This document shows positions 1-34,383 of a stretch of 64,000 bases of DNA, one piece after another. Below the pieces are notes generated by a model. It was not told where the DNA came from, did no database searches, and saw nothing but the letters and a program-made list of their open reading frames with translations. Each line of letters opens with the position of its first letter. Within the stretch, counting starts at the first letter, position 1. The stretch is from the NCBI RefSeq assembly GCF_037975245.1, contig NC_092564.1:11487891-11551890 (forward strand), read 5' to 3'. The stretch comes from Apostichopus japonicus. Its lineage: Eukaryota. Position numbers and translations under genes: made by a program.

Positions 1-2461
1 TTTCAAAATAGACAATGCTTAGATGCAACTTACAAGGCCTGGGAAGTGTCATTTCCAGCGATCTGGGAGACATTTTCGGCCAAAATTTTTCTTGTACGCT
101 TCGCGCCAACTCATGGTGGCGCTTCGCTTAGATAGTTTGCATACAGGCTTCGCCCTTCCTTGGCAATTACTCGCTACACGCCTGTTCGAATTTGTAAAGC
201 AAAGAGCTTATATAACATCATATCAGTGAGCATTGAAATGCCTGTTCCACGATGAACAGCCTCAAAAAATGTCTATGTGTGTAGTCGAAGGCGTAGCCCA
301 ATTGGATTTGGGGCTGTAACGACTTGCCCGAAAAAAAAGCCAAAATATTTCGCGCGCAAAGCGCGCGTTCAACATATCGATGCCAATATCATATAAGCAA
401 CCATCGGTCATTACATTGCATGGCATCGTGTACCGCACGGTCCGTGAAAGTTGCACAGTATACCGCCGGATGCTAATGTAAACAACCAAATGTCTTATGT
501 ATATATAGATGGAGAAAAAGCATACAGATCCATTTATGTCAAAACTCTCTTTTACAGTAGTAATGTCGGCCAAGCTTAGAACTTTATTTTAATTACCAAC
601 GAGATAATTTTTAAGCTATTCATTGTTATTTATTTTTCTTTCAGTAAGTTCCCGAAAAAAATGGTTGCGGGGGGGGGGGGAGTGGGGACTGCAGCCCCCG
701 CCTCCTACGGGACCTACGCCTGTGTGTGTAGTGTTCGGTTTCGATATACCTGATATCGGAAATATCTGATATTTTTCTGCTCCTTCAACCAAGTTTTACA
801 ATAGCCATAATAAGAGGTTTTAATATTTGTACACCAATAAATTAACTGTGTCTGAATTTTCGAAAATTTCCTCACCAACATTCTTCATCATACTTTCCTC
901 TACTCGTGCAATTTGTACCTGTCTATTAGGGGTTCAAGGAGGTTTTTCCCTATTGGTTGTCCATAGATTGAATTTTGTGCAACATTATGGGTACGTTTTG
1001 AAGTGATTTTTATTCACGAGAAATGGGAATTTTGAAATTCTCAACAAACAATGGGCTTAAAACCTTGAAAAGTGGGGCTTTCGGATATTGTGGGCCGTGA
1101 CGTAGAATCGCCTACAAAAGCAATGATCCATAGGACATGCATGAGGTCGAACATGATGTGTGACTGGTGACAATCTTCAAAAAGGTTATGGATGGGAAAA
1201 AAATTGGGAAATACTTGGTTCTCAGGCAAAAGTGTACATCTGGTTGGTCATTTTCAAGCCCGAGAAGTGTCATTTCCGGTGATCTGGGGGGTATCAAAAC
1301 CAGAAATTTTCTTGTACGCTGCGCGCCAACCGATGGTGGCGCTCCGCTTAGATAGTAATTCGCGCCCCCCGGGTTAGAAAATCCTGGATACGCGCCTGGA
1401 TAAGGTACTTCGGTATATGCATACAGTGGCGGATCCAGGATTTCGCCGAAGGGGGGGCCCAGATTGGAAATGCCTAATCGTCGTCCTGGGGGAGGGGTCT
1501 AAGGGGAGGGGGTGCCCCCCTCCCCTTTGGAAAATTTCAAAAAATATGGAGGTCCTCGGTGCAATCTGGTGCTACTTTTCGTGAAAGTTTTGAGTAAAAT
1601 TTATTTCCAATAAATCATGTATTCATGGTTTGCCGGGCATATATTTGCAATTTCGACCAATGAGCTGGGATTTACGTCTTTGGGGAGTAGGTGGTGATGC
1701 AAACTACTTTTTACCAGGCTACTCCAGGCCATTTCATCTTGGATGCCCCTTCCAGATGGAGACTATTGATGCAGTCAGAGTGCCCCTCTCACCTTCACTT
1801 TATCAGAATGATGGTGTACTCTTTTTGCAAATTTATTTTACAAAAAATTACACGCACAGTGGCGTAGCTAGGATTTTTTGAGTGGGGGCCATGGGGGGCT
1901 GTTCTTTCTTGTGGGGGGCGGAGTTTACTATCTAAGCGGAGCGCCACCTTGGTTGGCGCGGAGCGTACAGAGAAAATTTGAGATTTCAGCACCCCCCAGA
2001 TCGCAGGAGATGGCACCTGTGAGGCAAAATAGCAACCAAAAAGATGTGCAACTTTGGTGACAGAAATGCAAAAAAAAGTTTTTTTCTCTTTCATGCTGAC
2101 TGGCCTTGCCAACTCAGCCAGACTTTTAACTTGACGGAAGATGGCATCATTTGTCGTTTCAAGCTGTCAAGGCCTTTCTCCCAACTCAAACCCCTGTGGG
2201 CTACCGGTAGATTTGCAGGATATGCCCACATGTGGACTTAAATAGCATTAGAGGAAGGGGGTGGAAGACTAACACGCATCGATGTTTTGGTAATGGTCCA
2301 CATTGGTGGCTCGGTGCTTATTAGGCCATTTATTGGGTTTCTTGAGGCAGCTGTCATCAGAATCTGGCTTTTTGTGCCAATCGATGACCGATAACATGTA
2401 TTGGTATGTAAATTTCTTCTTCATATATCTAGCAACACTCTAAAAAGAAATGAGTGGATTT

Positions 2462-2648
2462 CATTCCATTGGAGTGATCACTCGGCGCACTTCAAATTAA
2501 GAGTAAAATTTAACTCTATTGGAGTTAACCCTCACTCCTAATATTAGTGAATATAACTCTATTAGGAGTTAAGATTTACTCCAATGGAGTGGAAATTCAC
2601 TCTTATACCGGAATGTGCTCAGTGATCACTCCCATGGAGTGAAATTCA
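2462..2648. mobile_element. Unrelated small hairpin MITE-like element
   Basis: Inverted ends CATTGGAGTGATCACTCGGCGCAC (2462) and GTGCTCAGTGATCACTCCCATGGAGTG (2622). Internal direct repeats of TATTGGAGTTAA / TATTAGGAGTTAA. Confidence 0.4.
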
Positions 2649-2690
2649 CCTATGTTTTTATCAGTACAGTACAGTGCATATCATCATAGA

Positions 2691-2722
2691 CGTACGTACG
2701 TACGTACTACGTACGTTCGTAT
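2691..2722. repeat. (ACGT)n microsatellite
   Basis: gacgtacgtacgtacgtactacgtacgttcg. Confidence 0.9.
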
Positions 2723-2946
2723 ATCAGACGCACTCGATACCCACGATACGATACGGTCCTGGAGAAACTATTTCCACTCATCATTTTTTAAGGCGATACA
2801 GTAGTGAGTATTGAACAGGCACAGCCGCATGTTTGCAGGAAATTCAGAATTCCCAATATTTTATATCTCTACCAGTAGTGAAAATCATGTTTTGACAGTT
2901 TTGTGGACATAAAAATTTGTTTTGTGGAATATTCAATGACATATCA

Positions 2947-3305
2947 GGGGCGGATGCAGGATTTGTGACGGGGGGGGGGGGTCTGACTGGTCCAGCCGCG
3001 CCTGAACGTAAGACTATCTAAGCGGAGCCCCATCATCGGTTGGCGCGGAGCGTACAAGAAAATTTTTGGCTTTACAAACCCCCAGATGGCCGGAAACGGC
3101 ACTTCCCGAGTATTCTTAGCAGCATGTACCTAGCCTGAAAATATGGATCTCATGTCTGCAATTTCAGGCCCCCCGTAGCTACGCCACTGATCACGCATGG
3201 GGCCCTTTCCCTCGAACGCGGTAAAAAAAAAAAAAAAAAATCAGGATTTTCAAAAAGGGGGGGGGGGCCCGGGCCCCCCGGGCCCCCCCCTGGATCCGCC
3301 CCTGG
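2947..3305. mobile_element. MITE, complete copy (~360 bp), TIR CAGGGGCGGATGCAGG / CCTGGATCCGCCCCTG
   Basis: Perfect 16-bp TIR logic with G/C homopolymer tracts just inside both TIRs. The internal core ACTATCTAAGCGGAGC-CCATCATCGGTTGGCGCGGAGCGTACAAGAAAATTTT recurs in at least 9 copies in this window. Confidence 0.6.
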
Positions 3306-5261
3306 CATAAACCACAAAAGAGAAGTAAGGCATGGACACCATCCTTGGCTCCTTGCAGAAGTTTCTGATATATTTTTGGTCACACAATGTAAGATTCCCA
3401 TTTTACGGATGTAGGTGCATGGGCGGCGATCATGGGGGGGACGGGGGGGACATGTCCCCCCCAATATTTTAGGTGGGGGGATATAGTATCTAATATCCCC
3501 CCCAATATTTGGTGGCATAGTCTTTTTTAAGCATATGTTTTGTATTTTTTTATGGCATCGCTAGTAATTTCAAAATAGAAAATGCTTAGATGCAACTTAC
3601 AATGCCTGGGAAGTGCCATTTCCAGCGATCTGGGAGGCATTTTCGGCCAAAATTTTCTTTTGCGCTTCGCGCCAACTAATGGAGGCGCTACACTTAGAAA
3701 GTCTGGGTACAAGCTTTGCCCCTCTCTTGGCAAATTCCTCGCAAGGCGCCTGTCTAACCGTGTCACAATTTGTTATTATATATGACCGAAAGTAGTTTTT
3801 ACTTTTTTTCGAAATGAATAGCTAGACGGACCGCATCCGTAATGAAATTTGGTTTGCATCTTGTGTAAGTACGTATATGATCCACATCGATATGGGTTCA
3901 CCGGGTTTCCATTTGGCCTCTTTCCTACAAGATTTCTAACCGCAGGTGCGTAGCCAAGGGGGGTATGAAGAGTGGAGATCGCCCCCCCCCCTCGAGCATA
4001 TTTTTTGGGTATTTTTTATGATATCGAAGTTTTATAGTAACCGTTATAAGAGGTTTTAATATTTGTACACCGATAATTTAACTGTGTCTGAATTTGCGAA
4101 AATTCCTTGACCAACATTCTTCATCATATTTCCCTCTTCTCGTGCAATTTTGACCGGTCTGTTAGGGGTTGAGGGGGTTTTTCTATATTGGTTGTCCATA
4201 GATGAAATTTTGTACAACATTATGGGTATGTTTTGAAGTGAATTTATTATTCAAATTCTGAACAAATAATGGGCTTAAAACCTTGAAAGGTGGGGCTGAT
4301 GGGTATTGTGGGGCGTTACGTAGAATTACCTACAAAAGCAATGATCCACAGGAGATGCAATGAGGTCGAACATGATGTGTGACTGGTGACAATCTTGAAA
4401 AAAAGGTTATGAATGAAAAAAAACTATTAGGAAAAACTTGGTTCTCAGGCAAAAGTGTACATCTGGTTGGTCAGTTTCAAGCCCGAAAAGTGCCATTTCC
4501 GGTGATCTGGGGGGTTATCAAAACCAGAAATTTTCTTGTACGCTGCGCGCCAACCAATGGTGGCGCTCCGCTTTGATAGTAATTCCCCTGCATCCAAGCC
4601 AATGTCCCCCCCAATATTTGAAACAGATCGCCGCCCCTGTGTAGGTGTATCCCCAAGTATTCGTGGCTCGCAAATGACGTGCAAAATGTCCGTGTGACCC
4701 GCAAGATCCAATTAGTGCCCACCACTGCTTTGACCTAACTGTTGATGAAGTATCGAGACATACTGCTAAACCAGTAGGAAGGCCCGTGACTACCTTGCTT
4801 GGAAAAATAAAGTCGCAATTTAAGGACGTTAAGATTAACAATTTTTCTAGGAAGCAATAAACCCTGCGCAAGATCGTCATACGTGGCGGAGGTTAATCAC
4901 TGAGCATGTCGGATAGACGAGACTCAACTTACTACTACCAGGCGCGGCGGAACGGAAAAATTATTGGGGGGGGGCTAATGTGTGGAGACTATCTAAGCGG
5001 AGCGCCACCATCGGTTGGCGCGGAGCGTACAAGAAAATTTTGGGTTTTTTTAAACCCCCAGATGGCTGGAAACGGCACTTCCCGAGTGTTTTATGCTGCG
5101 AATACCTAGCCCTAAAATATGGGTCTCAAGCCTGCAATTTCTCAGATTGCACGTAAAAGTCTGTAAAAACATTGTAATTTGTATATTCGATGGTGTTTTA
5201 AGAGAGTAGCTATTACTCGTAGTGTACTCGCAAAGACGTTTTTGAGTGTAGTAAGGGCAGT

Positions 5262-5650
5262 GGCGGAGCTAGGGGTATTGATTAGGGGGGGGGGGGGCAA
5301 GAATGGTCTGTAGGGGCGCTTTCGACACTATCTAAGCGGAGCGCCACCACAGGTTGGCGCGGAGCGTACAGAAAATTTTTGAGTAAAGTTACTCCCTAGA
5401 TTGCAGGAAATGACCCTTTCCGGGCCTTGCTAATTTGCAGATAAACGGAGAATAAATAGGTGTCGTCGCCATTTTGTCGGAAAATTACACCAACAGAATA
5501 TGACAAATGTCAATAGGTATATGAGAGCGCAATAAAATAGTCAATAATCGCGAATAAGTTAAAAGTAGTGAAAAGCTGAAAAGGGCGCCAGCAGTCCATT
5601 TGAGTCCATCAGGAGGGGGGGGGGGGATCCGCCCCCTGACTGTATATATG
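5262..5650. mobile_element. MITE, complete copy (~390 bp), same family
   Basis: 5' CAGTGGCGGAGCTAGG...poly-G...ACTATCTAAGCGGAGCGCCACCACAGGTTGGCGCGGAGCGTACAG ... 3' poly-G-GATCCGCCCCCTGACTG (inverted). Confidence 0.55.
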
Positions 5651-6888
5651 GACGCTCCGCCACTAAGTAAGGGGATGTTGGAGAACTGGCTGAAATGAGG
5701 CAAGTCATTGGCCTAAGACGAAGTTGTGTTACGCTTACCGGTACTCACACTAACTGCTTCCACTTTTCACGGGGCCTGAAGACGCGGTTGGGTGACAATG
5801 TAGTCTATAGCCAGGGGACGGTCCGAGGGACCCCAGCAATTACTAAAATTATTACACCTATATAGTATACGTGTGCATCGGACAGATCGACAAGTATGCA
5901 TTGAAAAATGGGCAGATGCACGTTTCGGAGCCTTGGTAAATATTGGGGGGGCTTATCATGCATTTGCCCCCTCAACTTTTTCATTGGGGGGGCTGAGCCC
6001 CCCCAAGCCCCCCCGGTTCCGCCGCCACTGGGTCCCCTTCATGGCAGTAGGCTTCTCGATCCCACAAGCAGAAGTTAGAGGCTATATATGAAGTCATGAA
6101 AAGTCATATCAATACAATAATCATATTAGATAACTTAAATGATCTTAACCTTATCATAGGAACATGTTTTTTCGATTCTCGTCACACCACAAACTTGCTG
6201 GCTACGTACGAGCCTGCCTACATTCGTGTGGGCTCCTATAATACTCCAGCGCGCACACTCCCTCCTTTATAAAATACTGAATCCGTCCCTGTAGCTTATA
6301 TTATGCCTATCGAGGAATTATTAAGAAGTCCCAACGTGAAAAGGTTTCTTTCCACTGTACTGATCCCCTTTGTAACCATCCACCATCAGCGTCCGCAGCA
6401 ATCAGGTCGCATAAAGTACAGTAGTACATGATGGTACCTTACAGCAATTATAAGCTAGCAAGTCGACATCAGGTCTGTATGAGTAGGCCTACAAAAGTAG
6501 GACAAGTTATCTAAACTTTAGAAAACCAAAATAGACATAGCCCTAAAAAACTCTGGGTCTTGTTGTTTCCGTCACAACAGTATGCCATTGGAAGTTAATT
6601 ATAATGGCATTGACAGTCATTTTACTCTTCAAAAAAAATATATTTAAAAAAAACACACACACACAAAAAACGACTTAGACAAGTCTGAATGTTTATGTCG
6701 CAAAACCCATGCCACTTTTATTCAGTGTAGGCTACGTGTTGTTAAATTGTAAAATCATTGTGGTACAGTATCATTGGTCCACAGAACTGTTGAATTTCTG
6801 TGCACTGAAACCAGCAGTACTTCATTATTAAGCAGCATTAATTCGAACTTGGTGTCACAATCGTTCCAAGCTGATTGCCAAAGAAAAG

Positions 6889-6970
6889 ATGGAGTGGTTT
6901 GAAGGAGAAATCTCTGCTGGCATAGCCGAAGCGAAGAAGCGGAACACCCTTTTTGTCGTGTATATAAGAG
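6889..6970 (+). CDS. UBXN4: UBXN4/UBXD2 (erasin) orthologue, coding exon 1 (start codon)
   Basis: ATG at 6889. Translation MEWFEGEISAGIAEAKKRNTLFVVYIR aligns with the human UBXN4 N-terminus MLWFQGAIPAAIATAKRSGAVFVVFV. Donor AG|GTGAAT at 6971; ends in phase 1. Confidence 0.85.
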
Positions 6971-7455
6971 GTGAATTAGCCTATTGTTATTTAACACTAA
7001 AAGTACTTTAATATAGCGTAATATAGGCCTAGCCTATACTACTAAGTACTAGGTTAGCTATTATAATATTGCGCAAACCCGACCTTAGGCCCTTAACCAA
7101 CCCTCTAGCCAGACTTAAGTCCTAGGCCTTTGTATCATTATCTTGACTACTTGGGTTTGTCACATTCTCCCTATTTGTACCTTATCATCCAATATTAAAG
7201 GCAAGTCTGTAAAAGGAATATATATTGGCATAAAGAAGCAATGTATGATTTTAGAACTGTACCAAATTAAGTCAACGACAGTGCTGCTGTAACCAGTGAT
7301 CTAGTCTTCACTAATTTTCATTATTCCTGTTGGCGCAAAAATCTGTCAATTATGTTACACAAGATAAACAATATTAATAGTTAAAAAATATGGGATGTAC
7401 AGTATGAATTTTGGCTCAACCAAACTTCTTTTCCCTTTCCACAATATGTCTATAG

Positions 7456-7561
7456 ATGACTCAGATGATTCCAAGAAGATGGATCAAACTTGGGAATCCC
7501 CGGAAGTTGCAACAGTCTGTAAAAAATTAGGATTGGTTGCTATGCGTTTTGTAAAAGACAG
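7456..7561 (+). CDS. UBXN4: UBXN4 orthologue exon 2
   Basis: Acceptor ...tctatag|. In-frame continuation DDSDDSKKMDQTWESPEVATVCKKLGLVAMRFVKD resembles human GDDEQSTQMAASWEDDKVTEASSNSFVAIKIDTKS. Donor AG|GTATTG; phase 1 in, phase 2 out. Confidence 0.8.
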
Positions 7562-8329
7562 GTATTGTTCATCTCATTTAAGGGTTGAATATTCTTTTTC
7601 CTGCAATGAATACTTTAAAAAATAATTTAAAATTAAGTTTTGTTGTTTGATGAGTAAAGTGCTAGTTTACCAAATCATATTGTTTATTAAAGGTTCGGCA
7701 AGATTTCAGCTTTTGAATTTTTTTTGCCATTAAGTTATTTCATTCATAAACTGGTTGGAATGCCTTTGGATGTGTATGTCTTGTGCCAGGCCACAAAATT
7801 CAAGCTGTCGTCTCCAAGCAGTTGCTAGACACAACGTAATAAATATATTTCATTGAGTGCTAGTACCAAATACAGTATAGTCACATGCTCCTTTGGCAAT
7901 AAGAAATAAATACCTCTTTTCAAAATTTATTATAACTGCTGGTCCACCAATGGTTGTTACATTTTATATCATATGTATCACATTAGCAGGACCTGTTATT
8001 TAATGGCCACCATGTTGAGCCCTAAAGTATTGTTTTGTTCAGCAGTACTGTAGTTGTCATATTAAAGTTTCTCTACAGCTTTTGGCATAAATTTGGGCAT
8101 CTCTTCTCACAAATTTACCTTTCTTAAAGAATGGAGATTTTCCAGTCTACAGTTTCTGCTGCCCCTGGCCTGTCACAGTCATACTGTAATTGCTAATGAT
8201 TGTGAAGTTGACTGAAGTGGAAAGGTTGACCTGTAGGTACAACAACCACACTGTCCATGCTGTAATTTTATGAATGAAACTAAACTTTAAACAAGTTGTC
8301 ACATTTTGTTCTTCTTTTCTCGTTTACAG

Positions 8330-8358
8330 CTCAGAGTGCAAGATGTTCTCCCAATGCT
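8330..8358 (+). CDS. UBXN4: UBXN4 orthologue exon 3 (29-nt microexon)
   Basis: Acceptor cgtttacag|, donor T|GTATCC. Encodes (R)SECKMFSQC, matching human KSEACLQFSQI. It joins exon 2 (phase 2) to exon 4 (phase 1) in frame. Confidence 0.7.
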
Positions 8359-9397
8359 GTATCCTTTCTTAATCTACTGTATGAATGCCAAACTTAGACA
8401 AAAGATAGAGAAAATTTGATATAAAAGTGCAAACAATAATTGATATAAGATGGAACAAAGAGGGAAAAGTTGCACCTTTGGCATCAGTGGTATGAATAGC
8501 ATTTTTATAATTGTATGTTTTGATGTTTTCTAGAATATGAATGCAAATCCTGAGATCAACAGGTGGATGAATTCCTCCAGAGTGTAAACTCAAAGATTCA
8601 TTTCACTGTAAAGTATTCAATTAGAGGTGAAACAAACATAGGAAGTATTTAACTGAAAGTTATTTCGAGGAGTACTTGAAATGTTAGGTTTACTTATTGT
8701 ATGAGAGAATATTAAAGGTGACATGCAACCATGATTTATGATAACATTCTTTGCCTGTATCCATTTTGAATTGTAATTCAATTCTGCTAGATTAATCTCA
8801 TCATTCCTCTTTAGGAAATTATAACTCATTTTCATCCACATTTGGAATAAGAAATTTCCCCCTTTTTGGAGAAGATTTTAATAGCAGATAAAATGGTTGT
8901 CACTTGACCAACCTTAGCCATGTACTGATGTCATTTTGAAACGAGAGCCATGAAGTGATGCTATGCAGAATAACTAAACACGTTTCAGGACTTCAACTCT
9001 GCTCATACATGTTCTAGTGCCAGGTCAGATCAAGTGGTGCTAACATTCATCACATGGTACATGTACTTAAGTCCCATGGCTTCTTCGTGGGGAGTGACTA
9101 TCTTTACCTACTTTATCGTTCCGAATCTTCCCACGATACTACTGTATAGAGTGACATGAATAATAATCGCCAACCTGTTTTTTGCGTATTAGGAAGTGTT
9201 CAAGCCAATTTGTTTTGAAATTGACACTAGTTAGTGCAAAAAATTAGTAAAACACTTCAATGTGAAACTGCAACAAGAAACTACAGTATTTATATTCAAC
9301 ACCATAACTTGAACTCAAATTGTTGCATATAAAAGGCAAAATGGTACTGTACATGTTAATACACAACAACCATCTTTAACATAAGAGAAACTTTCAG

Positions 9398-9519
9398 ATC
9401 CTGTGTTGATTGTGCCTTCTGTGTCATTTATATCTGGAGAAAATGGCGTTCTCCTAGAAGCTACAGCTGGCCAAGTAGATGCTCCAGGATTCATTGAAAG
9501 GATCAACGCTGCTGCGAAG
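9398..9519 (+). CDS. UBXN4: UBXN4 orthologue exon 4
   Basis: Acceptor ctttcag|, donor AAG|GTTAGT. YPVLIVPSVSFISGENGVLLEATAGQVDAPGFIERINAAAK matches human YPVVCVPSSFFIGDSGIPLEVIAGSVSADELVTRIHKVRQ. Confidence 0.85.
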
Positions 9520-9973
9520 GTTAGTTCCCTTATTTGCTTTGGACGGTCAATTCGATACGGGATGCCTGGAAGAAAACAAGTTGATCTTCTAGTACTGTTC
9601 CGTGTACTATTTGTCCATATTTAAAGCCATAATTATATGCACAGTGGTAGTTTCCAACTTTCCCAGTAGTCAAGGACTTTGAACATGCACCAAGTTCATG
9701 AAAGATGGAAGCCTATGACCTCAGTGAACTTTGTGTAATGATTTCCTGTCATTTGTTGTATATGTACCGAATGTCAAACAGAGTTTTAGATGCTTCTCCG
9801 TATCAGAAATGTTTCTTTACTACTGTATATTTATCAAATTTCTAGTTAATATTGCATAATTATTAATCTTTTGTGTTCTACTGCTAGGTGAATCTCTTTT
9901 CTGTTGCTTTCATTATATTCTACAACAGGGTCATTTAGCGGTTCAATATATGTTTTCATTTTCTCGTTTGCAG

Positions 9974-10052
9974 ATCCAAAAAGGACAAGGAACGTCAACG
10001 ACAGATAAAAATTCAAAGCCTGAGCGTTCACAGACTACACCCGCCCAGACAG
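9974..10052 (+). CDS. UBXN4: UBXN4 orthologue exon 5 (S/T-rich linker)
   Basis: Acceptor ttctcgtttgcag|, donor CAG|GTACTA. IQKGQGTSTTDKNSKPERSQTTPAQT is a low-complexity linker like the human S/T-rich segment. Phase 0 in, phase 1 out. Confidence 0.55.
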
Positions 10053-10960
10053 GTACTACTGTTTCCTTATCACAGTCTACTTGATGTCAAGACATGAATT
10101 GCACCCATTTTGTGCTCATCAATGCAATAAAAGTATACAATAATGTGCTGTTGCTACTAGCAACATCTGTTTTTGAGGACCATGATAAGGCAATAAACAA
10201 GCTTGTACTTTCCTTCCAGGTTAATGTATGACACGATACAAATCAATTAATGCAAGTAGTAAAGCCGGAGCTCAGAAGTAAAATTTGAAAATCGCTTAAT
10301 ATATTAGAGTAACTTTTGCCCATTTTTTGTCCAGCCTGAGTTTGCTGAAATCTTTACACAAAAAAATCAAGAGACTGTTACTGAAGTTATTTACAAATTG
10401 ATCCAAGTAAGGTATCCTAGTGAAGTAGTTGATCAGAGAGTAATTTATGAGTACATGGGTGGTGACTTCAGACAGCTTTGCATATGAATTACACAATTGG
10501 CATGCCAAAGGCATATCCATAGTTTTCAACTTCTTTTACTTTTTCTTCAAAATACAGTATGTATTTGAAACTTGACTGGTCATGCCAATGAACTGTTTGT
10601 CAGTTTCTTATCCCCAGTCAATGCTAAAAGCTCTGCTTAGAGTACATGTAGTTGTTGATGATGGTTTTATGTTAATTAGAGACATTATGTTAATTAGAGA
10701 CAGCCAACTGTAATGGTTCTTGGGCAGGCAATGGAAACAAACTTGACAGTCACGTTGACAGCTTGTCATCAACGCTCTGTCGACAGATCGAATGTTTTAA
10801 TATTACTCTGTATATTGTAGAGAAGATATAATGAAAACACTTCCAACCTGTGGCAATAAATAATGATTACCAATGGCTTCTGTTTTGACAATACTAGTTA
10901 GTACCGTTGCAGAGTTTGCCGCTGAACTGTTGACAAGAAACAATTTTTTAATATTATTAG

Positions 10961-11103
10961 AGACAACATCTCCAGTCTCACCCACCCCTGAGGTCCCAGT
11001 GACAACCCCGACAGAGGAGAAAGAGAGTGTCCAAGAGAGAGCTGCACGGTTAAGGAAGAAAATGGAAGAGGTTCATGCAAAGAAAGAAGCCCAAAAGAAA
11101 GAA
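10961..11103 (+). CDS. UBXN4: UBXN4 orthologue exon 6
   Basis: Acceptor ttttttaatattattag| (alternative in-frame acceptor at 10912/10913). Donor GAA|GTATGT. Encodes ETTSPVSPTPEVPVTTPTEEKESVQERAARLRKKMEEVHAKKEAQKKE, matching the human charged coiled-coil start LEERREEKRKEEEQREIKKE. Phase 1 in, phase 0 out. Confidence 0.6.
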
Positions 11104-11639
11104 GTATGTTTTGTAGATCGTTTGTGAGAAAGTTTGTTTTGTTGGATGGTAACTCTCCCCTCACTCTTAACTCCCTTCCCCTTGCCTCACCTGCAATCAT
11201 TGACTATAGAGTGCATTTTTCATCCATGTAGTGTCCAAATTTCACTAGAAAAGGAGCATCTTGCATTGGAATCCTCAATGCTGGATTAGCTGATAGGCTG
11301 GGAGGTAAGTGCCTACGTAGTACTGTATCCCAAAGATCAAGTGGCCCCCAAGGTCAAGGGGATCACTTGGACCCAGTTTTACACTCTATGATGCCCCACA
11401 TTGAGTTGCATTGCGAGTCAAATCATTGAATCTCACAGTGTCCCCTGAACAAATTAACAACCTCATTTGAAATATTTTCTGGATCACAGAATTTAGTCGT
11501 GTCAGATGATCTGAATTTAAATCATTCAACATCAATTTTGTTTTCATTTTTTGCAGCAGATAGTTATTTGGAAACAATTGACAATCCCTTCGTGGATAAT
11601 TTACGTTTGGCTTTATACTGTTTGATACTTAATTAACAG

Positions 11640-11932
11640 ACCTTAAAGCAGAAGGAGCTTGAGAGGCGAAAGGTGGGGCAATCCATGCAGAAAGCCCAAC
11701 AGCAGAGGGCCGAGGATGAATTGAGACAGAATGCGGTAGAGAAGAGGAGGGAGAAGATGGAAGACAAAATAGCAAGACAGAGAGTTCGAGAGCAGATCGC
11801 AAGAGATCGAGCTGAGAAGGATGCCAAGTTTGCCACTGCCAGGAATGAGGAACAGAAACGTAAAACAGCAACGCAGGAAGCAAATGTTGAGCAGCAACGG
11901 GCAGATGATATAGCGAGGGCAGCAGCCAACCG
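11640..11932 (+). CDS. UBXN4: UBXN4 orthologue exon 7 (K/R/E-rich coiled coil)
   Basis: Acceptor aattaacag|, donor CG|GTGAGC. TLKQKELERRKV...AEDELRQNAVEKRREKMEDKIARQRVREQIARDRAEKDAKFATARNEEQKRK parallels human EERNREKAEDRAARERIKQQIALDRAERAARFAKTKEE. Phase 0 in, phase 2 out. Confidence 0.85.
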
Positions 11933-12571
11933 GTGAGCACTTTATCAGGTCGCTCTGATGTGGGTTATCTCCAGTAACAGTCAGGGAGAAATGGTTTAGT
12001 CTGGGCCTCTGGGGATTGCTTTTTTCATTCAGTAGGGGAAGAATTAGATGGTGGACTACTTAGTTGTCTACACATCCCTCCCCCCACCCCCCATATTTTC
12101 AACCTCACACAGAAATTCTAGAGAAGTTATTATCAGAAACATGTATTTTAACCTAAATATAGGCTAAACATGCCTCAGAATGCACCACTTGATGTAAAAA
12201 CTTCTACTTTTATCTCAGGAAGACACCAGACCCCTCTACTTAAAGTTGGCTTCAGTGATGGGAGGGTCACACACCCCTCTCCTTTATAAAATCCTTCATT
12301 TGCCTCTGACCTTTCCATAAAGGTTTATGCCCTTTATATATAAGTCAGTATGGGATAATTTAGAATTTACCCCCTCCCCCCCTCACCTTTGAAATCTTGT
12401 GCATGCCACTGCTTTAATTTGAAAGATACTACATTGCACCAATTGGCATCAAATTGTTTCTGTCAAATAAAATCTTTTAACAAACCTTTCAGTTTTGTTT
12501 ACTGAAATTACCAATCAAAATACAACTAGGGAAATGAATTTGTCTCTATTGGATCTTGATTATCTTTGCAG

Positions 12572-12674
12572 AGAGACGGCCAGGCTTCAGTTTCGCCTCC
12601 CTGATGGAAGCAAGATTCTCCATCAGTTCCCATCTTCAGCAACACTAGGAGAAGCTCGTCAATATGTCGCCGAG
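12572..12674 (+). CDS. UBXN4: UBXN4 orthologue exon 8 (start of UBX domain)
   Basis: Acceptor tatctttgcag|, donor GAG|GTGAGA. RETARLQFRLPDGSKILHQFPSSATLGEARQYVAE matches human RSTVARIQFRLPDGSSFTNQFPSDAPLEEARQFAAQ. Confidence 0.9.
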
Positions 12675-13070
12675 GTGAGAATATTAACTTGCTGCAAAAG
12701 TGCATTTCTTGAGAAATTTTTAAAATTTGCAAAAGGCCATTTCTGATGAATGACTTATAAGAAAATTGTTATCATTTAGTAGCTTTGGCAACAGCTAACA
12801 TTCCATTTTTATTGTGGAGAGGCTTTGTGGTATATCCATTCACTTTCCTCCCTGTGTAGTCTTAAGTCTTGAATTTGCATTTTTACACCAGTTTTGGTGA
12901 AGGAAAAGTACTCACTTACTGTCTGCACAGAAATATAAATGCATAAGTGAAGTTAATGAATCAGGTAGGAACAGAAAATGCAGTTACTTGTAACTTGTGC
13001 AATACGACCTTCCGGTTTGGAAAGTCACCATCAGGCTGTATCAAAGATTCTTTTTTTTTTTTACGTTCAG

Positions 13071-13202
13071 CAAGTTGGCAGTGTCCTTCAAGACTTCAGC
13101 ATGTCTACGGCTTTTCCAAGACGTCAGTTTGGCACGAGTGACATGGACACCTCGTTGCTGGACTTGCAGCTTGCCCCATCTGCTGCAGTTATCATTTTAC
13201 CA
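13071..13202 (+). CDS. UBXN4: UBXN4 orthologue exon 9 (UBX domain, continued)
   Basis: Acceptor (t)12acgttcag|, donor CCA|GTAAGT. QVGSVLQDFSMSTAFPRRQFGTSDMDTSLLDLQLAPSAAVIILP matches human TVGNTYGNFSLATMFPRREFTKEDYKKKLLDLELAPSASVVLLPA. Confidence 0.9.
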
Positions 13203-13829
13203 GTAAGTCCAGAAAAAGTTTAACTGCTTTCTAGAAGTGAGTTGATTTCTAGGAGAAATTTGTAAAAGACAGGCAAACTGATGGATCAACTTGCGGGTTT
13301 GTTAACTACCCCAGATTGCCTTGAAGCATTTGTTAAAAACTTTGCCCTTACACTGGCTGTTTACTTATGTCTTTATAACCTGATAGGGTGCAGAACATAA
13401 TAATTTTCTGTACAAGACAGCTGTACCCCCTTAAGTCCAACAGGTTAACAGTGCGTTACTAAAGGCTTTTAAGATTCGTGCATTCAACATAATAATATAT
13501 TTATTTGTCAGGAATGCTCCTATAAGGATGACGAGCATGAATATAGTGCAGGATGCTGGGTCCTACATTTTCTAAAGTTGTTAATTTAAGGCATTTGAAC
13601 AAAAAGGGCACATTGATGGATAAACCCTCTGGTGTTCACAGGATCATTTCTCCCAGACAAAGTTATTGTACCAATCTGTAGCTAGAGCTTTGTGCTCATT
13701 TGTGATGCTAATTTCCAACTTAAATGTTTGCTTGAGGGTGACTTTCTATATTGTATCTCCTCGGGAAGTAATGTCAGAAATGAATTAATGGCTTGCGGTA
13801 ACAATGTCTATATCGTTCTGTTTTAACAG

Positions 13830-14044
13830 GGGTCGCAGAGATCAAGCGCATCGACAGCTGTGGCAAGTGGAGGCGGATTAATAGCCCTGCTTCTTGCTCC
13901 CATCATTTATCTTTGGAACTTTTTATATACGTTTATTTTTGGAACACCGACAGAACACCCCGCCTCTGGTGACGTAACTTCATCCAGTCCACAAGAGCCT
14001 CCGCAGGCAGATCACTACAACACCATGGGTGCCAGACCCAAAAG
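13830..14044 (+). CDS. UBXN4: UBXN4 orthologue exon 10 (hydrophobic membrane-insertion hairpin)
   Basis: Acceptor ttttaacag|, donor AG|GTGAGT. ...GGGLIALLLAPIIYLWNFLYTFIFGTPTEHP... corresponds to human GDIWTLLGTVLYPFLAIWRLISNFLFSNPPP. Phase 0 in, phase 2 out. Confidence 0.8.
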
Positions 14045-14961
14045 GTGAGTACAAGAGCAAAAATGTACAGTATTGATATGATATGCATGTCATATTGATA
14101 TGGTTTAATACTCTTTTACTTAAGCATGCTCCTTGGAAAAGATAAGGTTTAAAAAAAATGTAATAAATTGAGACTACCTGAGCACCAGAGAGGTCATCTC
14201 TAAGAATGTGAAGAAAGAAATGTTGGCATGCCTCAGCTACAACATTTTCCTTTGGCAGGGCAGCAATCACTAGTATTTTGAAATCATTCAAGAAGAAATA
14301 AACAGCTGTGTACTACCATGCAAACAACAAGTTAGGACAGGATGCCAAAAGTATTACGGTAGATAGTTTGACAAAAGTAGAGCAAACCTTGTTAAGTTCA
14401 GGACATTAGACATATTTATAGAGTATGATATATATATATATATTCATGGAGTAAGAAAGACAATTGGGTCTTCAAAGGCCGGTCACTTTGCGAGATCATT
14501 TGTCAATTTTTTTAGCAATATGTGCACTTGGCCTGTCCCATAAAGTTGTCTAGTATAGGCAACATATCAATTTTAGGGGGCTCGGGGGAGCGGTAGCGTC
14601 CTCCAGTCAGGCTGTGTAGGACATATTCTTTTGTGCTCTCCAGTTACACACATGAGACAGCGCTGGTCTGTAGCAATAATGTCTGTTGCTTGTTGTTGAA
14701 ATCAGTCTCTGCTGCTGTGGGGTATATTGTAGCTACAGCAGATTATCTTTTTGCAGCAGGGCTCATGGGATATATACAGTCAGGTGTCAAAATATATGTT
14801 AGCATGTGTTTGCTGCATACTACAATATATTGTTAATCTTATTGTTAACAGTTCTTAAGTTATCGTGATAGGAACCTGACTTAACAGAAAATGTTTTCTA
14901 TGGTTGTCATGTTTTGTTTGTTGATTTTTTTCTTTCTTCTTTCTTCTCTCATCTCATGAAG

Positions 14962-15106
14962 TTCTTACGCCAGGAGGAGAAACCCGCCTCAGCCAGAGGG
15001 TGGATCGATCGCAAGACAAGAGGGAAATATTCACAGACTAAACAGAGATGACGACAAAGATGATGAAAATAATACTTGGAATGGGAACTCAACACAACAG
15101 ATGTAA
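14962..15106 (+). CDS. UBXN4: UBXN4 orthologue terminal coding exon (stop TAA 15104-15106)
   Basis: Acceptor (ct-rich)catgaag|. ...HRLNRDDDKDDENNTWNGNSTQQM* matches the human C-terminus YRLRTQDDGEDENNTWNGNSTQQM*. Summed CDS of the 11 exons is 1449 nt (482 aa), divisible by 3. Confidence 0.9.
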
Positions 15107-15599
15107 AAAGAGTTGTCAATGGTCAGACTGGAAGAATATAAATTACTACCGTTTTAAGGAGATGGTTACGGTTCATTGCTGGAAAGATACAATCCTATTC
15201 TCATGTAGATAACGTACATTGCATATTTCACACTACCGAACAGTCTCATATTAATGCTACCAAGTATCTTGTCCATTCCACACATGGTGTGATCAGCTGT
15301 TAATTAAACTAATTACTCCTTTAACTCTAATTACTTCTCATCAGAGCTTTGTTTGGTAATTAATTTTTGTGTATCTGGTATTAAAGAAGTATACCCAACC
15401 ACTATCAGTGGAACATTTGGAAAATTTGACACTCGGGCACCAAGAAAAGCAGACCGTGATTAATTGTGTTTTCATATGGCTATGTGGTTGCAAACAATAC
15501 ATGATTAAAGCTACTATGGAATAATTTAATGTTCTGCTCTTATGTAATTGGTTTAAGGTTTATGAGTTTTTTCTCATAATATGCTGAAACCGTTTTTTT

Positions 15600-16065
15600 T
15601 AGCTGCTATACATCATTGCATTTATGTCACAACTTGCAAGTTTTGTGTAGCACTTTTGGTACGCTGTACCAGATGCTATGTTCTATGCTATACTAGATAA
15701 ATTATTCATTTAGTATAGCATCAACAAAAATTGCATTTATGTTGCAACTTGCCAGTTTTGCGTAGCACTTTTGATACGCTGAACCAGATGCTATGTGCCA
15801 TGCTATACCAGATAAATTATTCATCTAGTATAGCATCAACACAACTGGCATTTATATTGCATTTTTGCCAGTTTTGTGTAGCATTTTGGTAAGCTTTACT
15901 AGATGCTATGTACTATGGTATGCTATACCAGATAAATTATTCATCTAGTTTAGCATCAATGCAACTCGCAATTATGTCGCAATTTGCCTGTTTTGTGTAG
16001 CACTTTGGTAGGCTATACCAGATGCTATGATGTATGCTACATGAGCTATGCCAGATGAAACATTT
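15600..16065. repeat. Minisatellite, ~115-bp unit x ~4
   Basis: Unit tgcatttatgtcacaacttgcaagttttgtgtagcacttttggtacgctgtaccagatgctatgttctatgctatactagataaattattcatttagtatagcatcaac repeated with ~85-90% identity. Lies ~500 bp downstream of the UBXN4 stop, probably in the 3' UTR or flank. Confidence 0.8.
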
Positions 16066-16752: not shown

Positions 16753-17162
16753 GTATTTGATCCTCAGTTGTATTTGATCCTCAGTTGTATAAAGAATGAC
16801 AGAGAGAAAGACAGACAAACTAATGAGGTGTTATCTAAACTAATTATGTATTTGATCCTCAGTTGTATAAAGAATGACAGAGAGAAAGACAGACAAACTA
16901 ATGAGGTGTTATCTAAACTAATTATGTATTTGATCCTCAGTTGTATAAAGAATGACAGAGAGAAAGACAGACAAACTAATGAGGTGTTATCTAAACTAAT
17001 TATGTATTTGATCCTCAGTTGTATAAAGAATGACAGAGAGAAAGACAGACAAACTAATGAGGTGTTATCTAAACTAATTATGTATTTGATCCTCAGTTGT
17101 ATAAAGAATGACAGAGAGAAAGACAGACAAACTAATGAGGTGTTATCTAAACTAATTAATTA
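16753..17162. repeat. Minisatellite, 78-bp unit x ~5 (near-perfect)
   Basis: Unit tgtatttgatcctcagttgtataaagaatgacagagagaaagacagacaaactaatgaggtgttatctaaactaattatg. It generates the spurious 146-aa periodic ORF 16723-17163. Confidence 0.9.
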
Positions 17163-18808: not shown

Positions 18809-19537
18809 CTAGGAAAATAAGAATATGATGTCCAGTGGACAGTTCCAAAGGTATGTACAAGGAAGGGAAGGGATGGATGTGATGGGACAGAATAGGAATT
18901 CGTCACTCATCCACAAGATTGATTTATATTTCACTAGACTGCGTGTAACGTGAGTTTCCATCATCCTGCATCGGGTCATTTGACTATTGTTATAGCTTTC
19001 ATCAAAGGAAATTTTGACCGAAATTGTCTACCAACTTCTTCCCTATTTAGCTATTAATGAGCTAGTTTGTCTAGCAACATTACTGAGTAGAATTGATCAG
19101 TTCAACAAGCCTCGATTCCAGCCACTTGAAATAATTTCCTCTTATGTGGCAATTCAGATGACTTCGTACAAGTATACCCATTGCGTTTAATCAATGGGAA
19201 GTGTTTGCGAACATTTGTTGCGGGATTGTAAATATTAAAACAACGTGACATCGTTGACCTACGATTTACCACCATCGGCACGCCCCCACACCCCATCAGA
19301 GGTCTAAGTCAAAGGTCACCAGTGCATTGTTTTAAAAACGTAAAACTCTCAAGGGGGCTTAAAAATTACAAAATATCTTAACATTTTAATCATGACTGCT
19401 TAACAGAAGTAAATGCTGTGTGGTTGACAATGGAACTGTTTGACCACAATTGGCCTTTCTCTTTAGGGATGTGGGGGGGGGGGGGGGGCGCATATTTGGG
19501 GATAATGAAGATTACATCATTAGTCGAAAAATCGTAC

Positions 19538-22599: not shown

Positions 22600-22602
<3 letters not shown>

Positions 22603-22680
<78 letters not shown>

Positions 22681-22801
22681 TTATATATATATATATTTAT
22701 ATATTTATATATTTATATATTTATATATTTATATATTTATATATTTATATATTTATATATTTATATATTTATATATTTATATATTTATATATTTATATAT
22801 A
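22603..22801. repeat. (TA)n then (TATATATTTA)n compound microsatellite
   Basis: Direct read. Lies in the GH81 intron between the exons at 22514 and 23165. Confidence 0.95.
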
Positions 22802-24394: not shown

Positions 24395-24650
24395 TGTTGT
24401 GGTTTATTATACCCTGTCTTATATCATGTTTTACTTTTACTGCTGTTGTTATTACTTTGAGGTTTTCTTAAGTTTGGTAATTTTATATTCCAGATTTTGG
24501 TTCTTTTGTACAGTGCTCTTGAGCATGTTTTACTTTTACTGCTGTTGTTATTACTTTGAGGTTTTCTTAAGTTGGGTAATTTTATATTCCAGGTTTTGGT
24601 TCTTTTGTACAGTGCTCTTGAGCATGTTTTATTTTATGATAACAGCACTA
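24395..24650. repeat. Tandem repeat, ~107-bp unit x ~2.4
   Basis: gcatgttttacttttactgctgttgttattactttgaggttttcttaagtt(t/g)ggtaattttatattccag(a/g)ttttggttcttttgtacagtgctcttga duplicated. Explains the spurious ORF 24309-24653. Confidence 0.85.
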
Positions 24651-26108: not shown

Positions 26109-26590
26109 CTGCAGGTTGAGAACGAAACACGAATGGGTTCAATGCTTCTACTGATATAATATTAAACAATTACAATGTAAGAATGGGTTCAATGCCTCAA
26201 TGCTTCTACTGGTATAATCTTAAACAATTACAATATACGAATGGGTTCAATGCTTCAATGCTCAATGCTTCTACTGGTATAATATTTAACAATTACAATA
26301 TACGAATGGGTTCAATGCTTCAATGCTCAATGCTGCAATTATTCTACTGGTATAATCTTAAACAATTACAATGTACGAATGGGTTCAATGCTTCAATGCT
26401 CAATGCTTCAATGCTTCTACTGGTATAATATTAAACAATTACAATATACGAATGGGTTCAATGCTTCAATGCATCAATGCTTCTACTGGTATAATATTAA
26501 ACAATTACTATGTACGAATGGGTTTAATGCTTCAATGCTCAATGCTTCAATGCTTCTACTGATATAATATTAAACAATTACAATGTACGA
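26105..26590. repeat. Tandem array, ~60-70-bp unit x ~7 (aatgggttcaatgcttcaatgcttctactggtataatattaaacaattacaatatacg)
   Basis: Direct read. Begins immediately upstream (minus-strand sense) of the acceptor of the most 5' GH81 exon found. Confidence 0.9.
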
Positions 26591-27214
26591 GGTGCAACGA
26601 ATAGCAAAGAAGATGATGAATTATAAGGAGACCAAAAAAATTCAGAGTAATTCAGATTAGTGGCAAAACAGAGAATGGAATTGTACGCAGTCGAAAAATG
26701 AAAAAAATATGAGGAGTGTTGAATGATACTTTAGAAACAGGGCTTGCGGTAATTTTTGTTGAACATTTTCGAAATATTAAAAGCATTGCGATGTCGGCAC
26801 AATCGTGAATATGTAGGTGTTCCTAGCTCCAAAGTTCATAAAAGGATTGAATAAGCCATTTTTTTGGGCGAGTATTGTTTATAATGATGATCAATTTTTA
26901 AACCCGATTGCTTCATTTAATACGAAATCTTACTCTGATTCGACGGCAGCAGCATATTGTACGTCTGTGAGCATAGGAATCCGTTTAGTTGCGTGCACCA
27001 CAAGGGATAAGACACCCTCGTCGCTATTACACGACACTTCAGTATAGGCAGTGCCATCGTCAGCCTCTGTCGACATGAAGTAAACATATATTTAGAAATC
27101 AAATGAATTTTATAGTTTGTGTTATACATGAGAGTAACGTTGAGGAGATTAACCCAGAGCAGTCACATTTGTAAATAAAGAAAAAGAAGGAGAAGAAGGA
27201 AATGGAAATATAGT

Positions 27215-27225
<11 letters not shown>

Positions 27226-27306
<81 letters not shown>
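27226..27306. repeat. (TA)40 microsatellite
   Basis: Direct read. Adjacent to the tRNA-like sequence. Confidence 0.95.
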
Positions 27307-27310
<4 letters not shown>

Positions 27311-27359
27311 TATACGTATTTGAAATTGTAGTGAGTTGGAAGAACAGTGAAATATTTCC

Positions 27360-28672: not shown

Positions 28673-28680
28673 ACAGGCAA

Positions 28681-34324: not shown

Positions 34325-34383
34325 AAACATTTATATATTCATATATATGTAACCGTATATATATATGAATATATAAATGTTTG

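Follow-up and report, generated by a model that had tools for sequence, protein, structure and literature searches.

The UBXN4-like locus and its repeat nest

The window, by which we mean the whole 64-kb stretch of DNA that was analysed, contains a UBXN4-like gene at positions 6889-15103 on the + strand and, ahead of it, a crowded nest of repeats within positions 1-6100. The exons of the gene are colinear by tblastn to 15103, and its closest named protein is the Apostichopus japonicus UBX domain-containing protein 4, with Pfam UBX. The first coding exon (6889-6970, + strand, MEWFEGEISAGIAEAKKRNTLFVVYIRG) lies outside the repeats and is mentioned for context only. The initial annotation had estimated that the nest ends about 800 bp before the UBXN4 start codon, and the distance from the last nest element end (6030) to the ATG was indeed found to be 858 bp. 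Its description of the nest as lying next to the UBXN4 promoter is accurate for position, and position is all that this adjacency denotes. In an annotation of this region, the first 6 kb call for masking as hAT-type repeats; neither a regulatory sequence of UBXN4 nor a duplication specific to the locus should be read into them.

The nest elements are non-coding, are approximately 75-94% identical to one another, and range in size from MITEs to 1.2 kb. The first of them is the 3′ part of a core-bearing element that is truncated by the start of the window (1-184, + strand; core 34-139, end ...ACACGCCTG at 184); it was located by blastn, nhmmer and core alignment and is 87% identical to 3568-3753. 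An orphan end-like fragment at 655-722 (- strand), read in the sequence as CAGGCGTAGGTCC... followed by G/C runs, has no partner end that could be found. A longer non-autonomous element is represented by its 3′ part at 791-1398 (+ strand), which includes a shared 570-bp segment and a core (1256-1361) and has its end, CCTGGATACGCGCCTG, at 1398. It is followed by a further orphan element end, CAGTGGCGGATCCAGGATTTCGCCGAAGGGGGGG, at 1424-1560 (+ strand), whose first ~30 nt recur without change in an element end on contig L031, and by the 3′ end of an element on the - strand (1857-2056; end CAGTGGCGTAGCTAGG at 1857, core 1924-2024).

At 2945-3304 (- strand), a 245-bp MITE-like unit (2945-3189; core 3008-3114) with both ends is joined to an extra end fragment (3190-3304). 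This had been called a complete copy at 2947-3305; the ends and the core are there, no duplication flanks it, and it contains a further end at 3189. The largest member is a 1,222-bp composite non-autonomous hAT element (3418-4639, + strand) with ends CATGGGCGGCGATC / CAGGGGCGGCGATC and an exact duplication, TGTAGGTG, at 3410-3417 and 4640-4647. Its interior holds two cores (3601-3704 and 4479-4584), two internal ends (3752 and 3943) and the 570-bp segment (4027-4585). The ends CAGGCGCGGCGGAACGG / CAGTGGCGGCGGAACCGG delimit a candidate 1,092-bp element on the - strand (4939-6030; core 4985-5090); judged by the similarity of the ends, they probably belong to one element. It is interrupted by a 408-bp MITE on the same strand (5258-5665) with ends CAGTGGCGGAGC / TAGTGGCGGAGC, a core at 5323-5428, a relic internal end at 5638, and an exact duplication, AGTAAGGG, at 5250-5257 and 5666-5673. 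The MITE had been recognised earlier as a complete copy at 5262-5650; the element stands with corrected boundaries.

Three further elements are found elsewhere in the window. A 972-bp non-autonomous relative at 27695-28666 (no strand assigned) has ends CACTGGCGGATCCA(A/G)GG, a G/C-run palindrome at one end, and an exact duplication, GGTAACAC, at 27687-27694 and 28667-28674. It had been proposed, at 27683-28672, as a larger relative or a carrier of the family; it is a relative that has only the end type in common and is neither a carrier nor an autonomous copy, and neither a core nor a transposase was detected in it with the nhmmer core profile and the ORF/tblastn search. A 231-bp unit at 39014-39244 (no strand assigned) carries the end-like inverted repeats CAGGGCCGATCCAAG / CAGGCGCGGATCCAAT, and its flanks match over 4 bp (CTTA); lacking both a core and an 8-bp duplication, it is not the complete copy that had been listed at 39027-39245. 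The third is a 655-bp element at 59989-60643 (+ strand; ends CAAGGGCGGTGGAACC / CAAGGGCGGCGGAAGC, core 60125-60232) with an exact duplication, CGAAAGTG, at 59981-59988 and 60644-60651. It had been given as 59989-60265, a boundary that proved to be a relic internal end at 60265. Element sizes across the window are 245-1,222 bp, and the larger ones are thus non-autonomous elements and not strict MITEs. Neither the list of ORFs nor tblastn with fragments of the transposase-bearing contig L001 revealed a transposase in the window. A tRNA-like gene at 27359-27431 (ARAGORN) is unrelated to the repeats.

Element ends and target-site duplications

The 16-nt end motif matched 13 times in the window at ≤2 mismatches, compared with 0.09 expected, and G/C runs of ≥7 numbered 18 in 1-6100 and 30 in the remaining 57.9 kb. 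These runs adjoin the element ends. Both the shared end motif and the G/C runs inside the ends, as they had been described in the initial annotation, are therefore confirmed. The two ends of an element differ in layout. At one end, the short inverted repeat CAG(K)GGCG(K)... gives way to a palindrome made of a G run and a C run; at the opposite end, a conserved subterminal core of about 100 bp precedes a spacer that varies and includes a C run, and the inverted repeat comes last. Paired ends agree at 11-14 of 14 positions and start with CAG, CAA, CAT or TAG, the exception being 27695-28666, which begins with CAC.

Among 153 candidate end pairs from the window and nine related contigs, seven had flanks that were identical at 8 of 8 positions, where 0.002 were expected; controls with displaced flanks gave 1, 0, 0 and 0 exact matches. 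Four of the seven are the window elements 3418-4639, 5258-5665, 27695-28666 and 59989-60643, and an eighth exact duplication flanks the element at 4898-7908 of contig L008. No target-site duplication was found for 2945-3189, 2945-3304, 4939-6030 or 39014-39244. The search for target-site duplications that had been suggested thus gave a positive answer, and with four exactly duplicated 8-bp targets and a dispersed core, the proposed reading as a family of small inverted-repeat DNA transposons holds against one of local duplications.

hAT elements have 8-bp duplications and inverted repeats of 10-25 bp (PMC3942097), and their ends begin with (C/T)A(A/G)NG, the third base being G (PMC1131882). 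The 8-bp duplications and CAG ends of the present elements fit this pattern. The initial annotation gave no superfamily name; the assignment made here draws on the duplications, the ends and the transposases of the relatives. Within hAT, the target consensus nTnnnnAn is reportedly that of Ac and nnnTAnnn that of Buster, as Arensburger et al. in 2011 are said to have described. In a small sample of nine duplications, none fit nnnTAnnn and one fits nTnnnnAn, and membership in the Ac or Buster subgroup was set aside on that count. In five of the nine, positions 2-4 read GTA or positions 5-7 read TAC.

The subterminal core and its transposase-bearing relatives

The core is present in nine copies in the window, eight of them inside 1-6100, which is 9.5% of its length (binomial P ~6e-8). 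The 20-nt sequence GCGCCAACCGATGGTGGCGC had 8 matches at ≤3 mismatches in the whole window, where 0 were expected, and the ninth core copy (1924-2024) was picked up by blastn and the nhmmer profile. Since two of the eight nest cores lie in copies that had been called complete, the further core fragments number six and not at least nine, as had been counted. The core comprises the blocks GGGAAGTGCCATTTCC..ATCTGGG and AAATTTTCTTGTACGCTNCGCGCCAACNNATGGTGGCGCTCCGCTTAGATAGT. It had been described as a palindromic hairpin core. In the alignment of core copies, it is not central: it is a subterminal module on the 3′ side, with one element end always next to it, and the distance from the core to the element end ...CGCC(N)CTG is 35-95 bp for all nine window cores and for most cores on related contigs.

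Column conservation in the core is approximately 90-99% in a comparison that spans at least six end subtypes and several assemblies, and the surroundings have diverged beyond alignment; only the nine window copies form an unbiased sample, as copies fetched with the translated core or the core pattern lean towards a conserved core. Between window copies, or between the window and other contigs, the alignable stretch is the core alone, at most 136-156 bp. The palindrome has a 6-bp stem only, and the fold of the whole core was no better than that of shuffled sequence (z -1.07 as DNA and -0.44 as RNA). Three changes in the palindrome arms were seen when core copies were compared, each of them single-sided and uncompensated, so there is no covariation. 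A hairpin function was rejected on these grounds. A search of Rfam with one core at a permissive E-value gave no RNA family match, with one chance-level hit, and a search of the whole window at the gathering threshold returned only a tRNA unrelated to the repeats. The blank result on the core and the unremarkable fold scores give no support to a structured RNA element or RNA gene.

Copies of the core are also scattered over unrelated contigs of ENA, Logan and JGI origin. Searches with the translated core retrieved 39 ORFs at E<1e-3 when word-indexed and 99 cluster representatives when exhaustive. Full cores were profiled on the window and 13 contigs (25 copies), and 8 more lie on three further contigs. 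A metagenome pattern scan (JGI/GenBank) gave 20 matches, of which 7 were full cores and 13 were chance matches in high-GC bacterial contigs. Some related contigs carry short head-to-tail arrays of core-bearing units.

One ENA contig, L001, contains a 4,195-bp element (5960-10154) with a duplication that agrees at 7 of 8 positions (CTCGTATC / CCCGTATC), a related end, CAGTGCCGGATTAAGG, and a core that lies 58 bp from the 3′ end of the element. Its 5′ boundary is backed by a second copy on contig L009 that is 91-94% identical. The transposase of L001 is decayed, frameshifted and inactive; Pfam Dimer_Tnp_hAT matches its C-terminal ORF with 29.1 bits (cut-off 21.4), and the transposase can be aligned from end to end, at 38-51% identity, with hundreds of animal proteins named "zinc finger MYM-type protein 1-like" or TTF-type. 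In these homologues, DUF4371 is combined with the FAM200-ZBED5 RNase-like domain and the hAT dimerisation domain. The L008 element, flanked by the exact duplication TACATACC, encodes an intact 583-aa transposase and has the same end type. Its transposase is 51% identical to that of L001, and the two elements have the terminal ~55 bp in common. No core was detected in contig L007 or L008, even with the nhmmer profile, and from L008 it follows that not every member of the clade needs the core. As to the transposase partner sought in the initial annotation, L001 combines the core with a hAT dimerisation domain, and no autonomous copy with the end subtypes of the window (e.g. CAGTGGCGGATCCAGG) was found in the window and the contigs searched. 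What L001 has in common with the window copies is limited to the core and the overall pattern of the ends.

Related systems and alternative explanations

A full-text search with the 16-nt end motif returned no paper, and shorter strings led to the silkworm families BmMITE-13 to -16 (PMC2997013). These families are 263-431 bp long and have 8-bp duplications of any sequence and ends nearly identical to those described here. The published end of BmMITE-13, CAAGGGCGGATCCAG, matches CAGGGGCGGATCCAGG and CAAGGGCGG of the window, that of BmMITE-15, CAGTGGCGTACCTA, matches CAGTGGCGTAGCTA of the window, and that of BmMITE-14, CAGTGGCGGATTA, matches CAGTGCCGGATTA of L001. By string comparison with the published ends, the window elements also show the Pegasus-like combination of an 8-bp duplication and the end type CAGTGGCG... 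/ CAAGGGCGGATCC. The silkworm families are from an insect and the present elements from an echinoderm, and the likeness is one of end strings, duplication type and size; the available portion of the report mentions neither a conserved 100-bp core nor G/C runs for BmMITE-13 to -16. The analysis connects the insect "Pegasus-like" MITE ends with the ZMYM1-like hAT transposase of a deuterostome invertebrate, and so points to a candidate for the autonomous lineage behind an old and widespread MITE end type.

Similar to the BuT2 MITEs and Mar of Drosophila (PMC3942097, PMC3517528), the window elements are short non-coding derivatives with hAT ends and copy-specific 8-bp duplications that are probably moved in trans. 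Unlike those MITEs, they are not simple internal deletions of L001, and they have several end subtypes. hAT elements require approximately 150-220 bp of subterminal sequence at each end; in Hermes, Tol2 and Ac, short repeats found there are binding sites for the N-terminal zinc-finger domain, and one end is not equivalent to the other (PMC10368747). By analogy, the two unlike ends and the conserved subterminal block seen here would fit that layout, although the core is one long block and not a set of scattered short repeats, and its motifs are unrelated to the AAGT of Hermes. A reading of GTGGC, which occurs in the end and in the core, as a Hermes-type transposase site was dropped because the Hermes site is AAGT (PMC10368747).

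We consider it probable, at roughly 85%, that the nest consists of old non-coding elements of the hAT superfamily that were mobilised in trans by a ZMYM1-like transposase, and that it grew by insertion. The window elements, which encode nothing, would have been moved by a "zinc finger MYM-type 1-like" hAT transposase with DUF4371, an RNase-H-like fold and a hAT dimerisation domain, supplied by 3-4.2 kb relatives elsewhere. Each integration would duplicate 8 bp of target, and recurrent insertion into and beside earlier copies would enlarge the nest and give rise to chimeric copies that retain internal relic ends and share internal segments. Apart from one unusually well-kept core of about 100 bp, the repeats are of an ordinary type for animal genomes. 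A very different account, in which an intergenic region was duplicated locally or segmentally and the repeats were never mobile, could draw on the packing of the cores, on the head-to-tail arrays of related contigs, and on three paralogous pairs (1-185/3568-3753, 791-1361/4027-4585 and 3011-3165/4986-5141) that are alike in order, orientation and identity (~86.5-87%). The spacers between the paired segments do not align, however, so a plain segmental duplication is rejected. The direct repeat 791-1361/4027-4585 (86.5% identity over 577 columns), reported earlier as a 570-bp duplication at 795-1365/4040-4580, is real; it is a segment common to two elements with different ends, since 4027-4585 sits inside a duplication-flanked element and 791-1361 terminates in an end of its own, and it does not represent a plain local duplication. 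Together with the four exact duplications and the core at 60125-60232 and in unrelated contigs, these findings make a never-mobile origin very unlikely, and local duplication as the sole cause is largely refuted. Even less probable, and scarcely to be expected, is that these are MITEs of the P-element superfamily. An 8-bp duplication alone cannot separate P from hAT, and the matching silkworm families received no closer class than Pegasus-like, on the strength of duplications and ends (PMC2997013). Against this, every transposase-bearing element found with the end pattern encodes hAT-type domains and no THAP/P-type transposase, one of them has the core, and the ends begin with CAG as in hAT, under which Pegasus of Anopheles gambiae is listed (PMC1131882).

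For the core itself, we infer that it was retained as a cis requirement of the transposase, for recognition of that end or for assembly there. A possible but doubtful alternative is that the core was captured or swapped among hAT lineages by recombination or template switching, and persists by boosting amplification or by binding a host factor. The identical core under at least six end subtypes would suit such an add-on, as would alignments confined to the core, chimeras with relic ends (5638 and 60265), the 570-bp segment in two elements, and L008, which keeps the terminal ~55 bp of L001 and yet has no core. The constant position and orientation of the core relative to the end are, in contrast, what an inherited subterminal region predicts, and nothing seen points to binding of a host factor; no Rfam family matched, the fold gave no signal, and the changes in the palindrome arms are uncompensated. 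It is unlikely that the core is a module under selection of its own, beyond a leftover from one parent transposon; if it were, it could be a portable cis-element that raises MITE amplification, or a host-factor site spread near genes by the elements. Should the core turn out to bind the transposase or to promote amplification, the family would be a handy case for the study of hAT end recognition; otherwise it is routine repeat biology. Partial resemblances of GGTGGCGCT to a CTCF half-site and of TTGGCGC to an E2F site were set aside.

Core copies and target-site duplications

By self-blastn and an nhmmer profile, the ~100-bp core, a conserved block inside the elements, has exactly nine copies in the window (34-139, 1256-1361, 1924-2024, 3008-3114, 3601-3704, 4479-4584, 4985-5090, 5323-5428 and 60125-60232), and the first 6.1 kb holds eight of the nine (binomial P about 6e-8). 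The 20-nt core gave eight window matches at ≤3 mismatches and none in 100 shuffles, and the 16-nt end motif gave 13 at ≤2 mismatches against 0.09 expected. The direct repeat of ~570 bp described in the initial annotation exists (791-1361 and 4027-4585; 86.5% over 577 columns).

All end-like motifs in the window and in nine related contigs were listed for either strand, ends were paired at 100-5000 bp, and the eight bases outside each pair were compared. Identical flanking 8-mers were found in 7 of 153 end pairs versus 0.002 expected by chance, and a control in which the right flank was displaced by 8, 16, 24 and 32 bp gave 1, 0, 0 and 0 identical pairs. The target-site duplications anticipated by the initial annotation are present, as exact 8-bp repeats, around four window elements: 3418-4639 (TGTAGGTG), 5258-5665 (AGTAAGGG), 27695-28666 (GGTAACAC) and 59989-60643 (CGAAAGTG). 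The other three flank elements on related contigs, at L003 687-951 (TCAACACC), L006 3256-4113 (CTCCTTAG) and L008 4988-5127 (GGTATTCG). Within each of these seven elements, 11-14 of 14 positions agree between the two ends. Duplications of 8 bp together with short inverted repeats that begin with CAG characterise hAT elements (PMC3942097; PMC1131882).

In terms of the copies previously taken as complete, the true limits of 5262-5650 are 5258-5665 and those of 59989-60265 are 59989-60643, the earlier boundaries being internal relic ends (5638 and 60265). Of the other two, 2945-3304 has no duplication and contains a further end at 3189, and 39014-39244 has end-like repeats but lacks the core and shows a flank match of only 4 bp.

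G/C runs of at least 7 nt are enriched in the nest (18, versus 30 in the other 57.9 kb), and long poly-G runs also occur window-wide without an adjoining element end. Thirty G or C homopolymers of 7-16 nt lie across 17733-62612, most without a neighbouring element end (for example 19473-19488, 39398-39412, 45420-45434 and 48363-48377, all outside the nest); these could be a genome trait, or an assembly or sequencing artefact. An imperfect palindrome of 197 bp (74% self-complementary) inside the nest at 2454-2649 resembles a MITE-like unit of another kind that is not related to the core family.

Element anatomy and formation of the nest

When the core copies were aligned with their flanks, the core was never central in the elements. 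All nine window cores are followed 35-95 bp downstream by an end of the form ...CGCC(N)CTG, the reverse complement of CAG(N)GGCG, with a C run before the end that is absent from one copy; most copies on other contigs share this layout. At their other end, complete elements have the inverted repeat and then a G-run/C-run palindrome (for example CACTGGCGGATCCAAGGGGGGGGGCCAAGGGGGGCCATGGCCCCCCCCC at 27695). Because the core-side and palindrome-side ends differ, the elements have two unlike ends. At least six end subtypes carry the common core, namely the GGATCC/GCTAGG, CGGCGATC, CGGCGGAAC, GTGTAGCGAG, CCGGATTAAGG and GTGCGGATG types, and the core-to-end spacer is highly variable in both length and sequence.

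The insertion 5258-5665, with its own duplication, sits between ends at 4939 and 6030. The common CGGCGGAAC subtype of these two ends points to a nested insertion, in which 4939 and 6030 would be the ends of one element; no duplication surrounds this outer pair. Within 3418-4639, an element whose ends and duplication are clean, there are nonetheless two cores, the 570-bp segment and two internal ends. The segment recurs at 791-1361, where it leads into another end, at 1398, and the limits of the similarity are sharp on either side. A plain segmental duplication was rejected because the spacers between paired segments do not align; chimeric elements, arising by nested insertion and template switching during gap repair, would fit better.

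Dispersal and transposase-bearing relatives

The dispersal search used a profile of the translated core built from seven window cores (frame ...KIFLYAPRQPMVALRLDS...). A word-indexed search picked out 39 predicted ORFs (E<1e-3) on contigs from ENA and Logan, and an exhaustive search returned 99 cluster representatives. Copies beyond the window were found as 17 further full cores on the nine core-carrying contigs fetched and as 7 further cores, on low-GC contigs, when JGI metagenome contigs were scanned by pattern. The core was the sole sequence common to the window and the related contigs (≤136 bp at 74-96% identity), in a core-based retrieval that favours copies with a conserved core. The family is thus dispersed. 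It also amplifies locally, as shown by core-bearing units repeated head to tail in short arrays (period about 390-495 bp) in ENA assembly ERZ26859072, on L031 (2141-3226), L032 (6617-7178) and L002 (9545-10146). The L031 end at 3226 is identical to the window end at 1424 over ~30 nt, so this assembly is probably from the same or a close species. The core-carrying contigs are rich in other mobile-element genes, including reverse transcriptase and further DUF4371/hAT fragments (L001 1062-1889, 10337-11002 and 17141-17770; L003 7976-11051), a density that fits repeat-rich eukaryotic DNA under metagenome accessions.

On L001 (ENA ERZ25073789), a core at 10003-10096 lies 58 bp from the end CCTTAATCCGGCACTG at 10154, and frameshifted hAT transposase ORFs lie upstream of it at 7087-9509. 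The C-terminal ORF matched Pfam Dimer_Tnp_hAT at 29.1 bits (cut-off 21.4), and the gene caller's precomputed hits also place DUF4371 in this transposase. The 5′ end of the element is CAGAGCTGGGTTAAC at 5960, its flanks CTCGTATC / CCCGTATC match at 7 of 8 positions, and a further copy, on L009 with 91-94% identity, ceases to be similar exactly at the 5′ boundary 5960. From these ends, flanks, ORFs and breakpoint, L001 5960-10154 is a 4,195-bp autonomous-type hAT element, now dead, with the core 3′ subterminal.

The stitched L001 transposase retrieved 687 proteins at E<1e-20 (38-51% identity, full length), which contain DUF4371, a FAM200-ZBED5 RNase-like domain and a hAT dimerisation domain and are named in the sources "zinc finger MYM-type protein 1-like" or "TTF-type domain-containing". 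An intact 583-aa ORF for such a homologue is carried by L008 4898-7908, a 3,011-bp element whose ends are CAGGGCCAGATTAT / CAGAGCCGGATTAA and whose duplication, TACATACC, is exact; its terminal ~55 bp align with those of L001, and no core was found in it. The 5′ region of this intact autonomous hAT element also contains a nested mini-element of 140 bp, 4988-5127, with the exact duplication GGTATTCG and the ends CAGTGCCCGATTAACC / CAGGGCCCGATTAAGC. No transposase lies within the 64-kb window, and among the related contigs searched there was no autonomous copy whose ends are of the window's own subtypes.

Five of nine duplications (window, L001 and L008) carry GTA at positions 2-4 or TAC at 5-7 (TGTAGGTG, AGTAAGGG, GGTAACAC, GGTATTCG and TACATACC), which may be a target preference in a sample as small as n=9. 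Compared with the consensus strings of the two groups, this small sample gave 0/9 matches for Buster and 1/9 for Ac.

Proposed role of the core and setting of the nest

An alignment of 25 copies showed two conserved core blocks, GGGAAGTGCCATTTCCNGCNATCTGGG and AAATTTTCTTGTACGCTNCGCGCCAACNNATGGTGGCGCTCCGCTTAGATAGT, with most columns at 80-99% and a variable linker of ~15 nt between them. The hairpin core proposed earlier corresponds to a palindrome, GCGCCA-N8-TGGCGC, in the second block. Folding of the core alone gave no gain in stability over shuffled sequence (z -1.07 as DNA, -0.44 as RNA), and the three arm changes seen are all single-sided. No Rfam family matches the core. hAT elements need about 150-220 bp per end, with unlike ends, and their subterminal sites are bound by the N-terminal zinc-finger domain (PMC10368747). 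Our best reading, a tentative one with a probability slightly below one half, takes the core as the cis-acting subterminal region of this hAT lineage. As the core-less L008 element shows, the core is not required throughout the clade, and this leaves room for the core being a swapped or acquired module. Whether cis-acting region or module, the conserved 3′ subterminal core is the sole feature of the nest worth following up.

Silkworm BmMITE-13 to -16, classed as "Pegasus-like" with 8-bp duplications, have the ends CAAGGGCGGATCCAG, CAGTGGCGGATTA, CAGTGGCGTACCTA and CAGTGGCGGATTT (PMC2997013), which hardly differ in sequence from the ends described here. Pegasus counts as a hAT element, and Repbase holds sea-urchin hAT-N entries (PMC1131882). 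The kind is therefore well known, and Repbase or Dfam may already list these very families. The non-autonomous hAT elements of window 1-6100, upstream of UBXN4, form a nest of an ordinary kind; the initial observation was confirmed in part, and its interpretation as a MITE family nest by UBXN4 is likewise supported in part.

The UBXN4 label itself was borne out. With a human UBXN4 sequence as the tblastn query, colinear exons were found from 6889 to 15103 (+ strand), and these exons as query retrieved UBX-domain proteins (closest named protein, 74% identity), which points to an echinoderm-like deuterostome as host, possibly a sea cucumber. The ATG at 6889 is separated by 858 bp from the last element end (6030). 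The window DNA is eukaryotic; its G+C is about 44-45% in the first 6 kb and ~37% in the remainder.

Elsewhere in the window, a tRNA-like gene at 27359-27431 (- strand; Rfam tRNA, 42.6 bits; Tyr with the unusual anticodon ATA by ARAGORN) adjoins a (TA)n tract, about 260 bp from the element 27695-28666. An ORF with a Kunitz/BPTI-like cysteine pattern at 34035-34319 (- strand) probably belongs to a neighbouring gene as one of its exons. AT-rich, (TA)n-like, self-complementary tracts at 22600-22800, 27200-27320 and 34320-34520 are related to one another. Tandem repeats occur at 16769-17158, 15598-16059, 26138-26590 and 24425-24635; the first consists of five perfect 78-bp units, while the other arrays are diverged.
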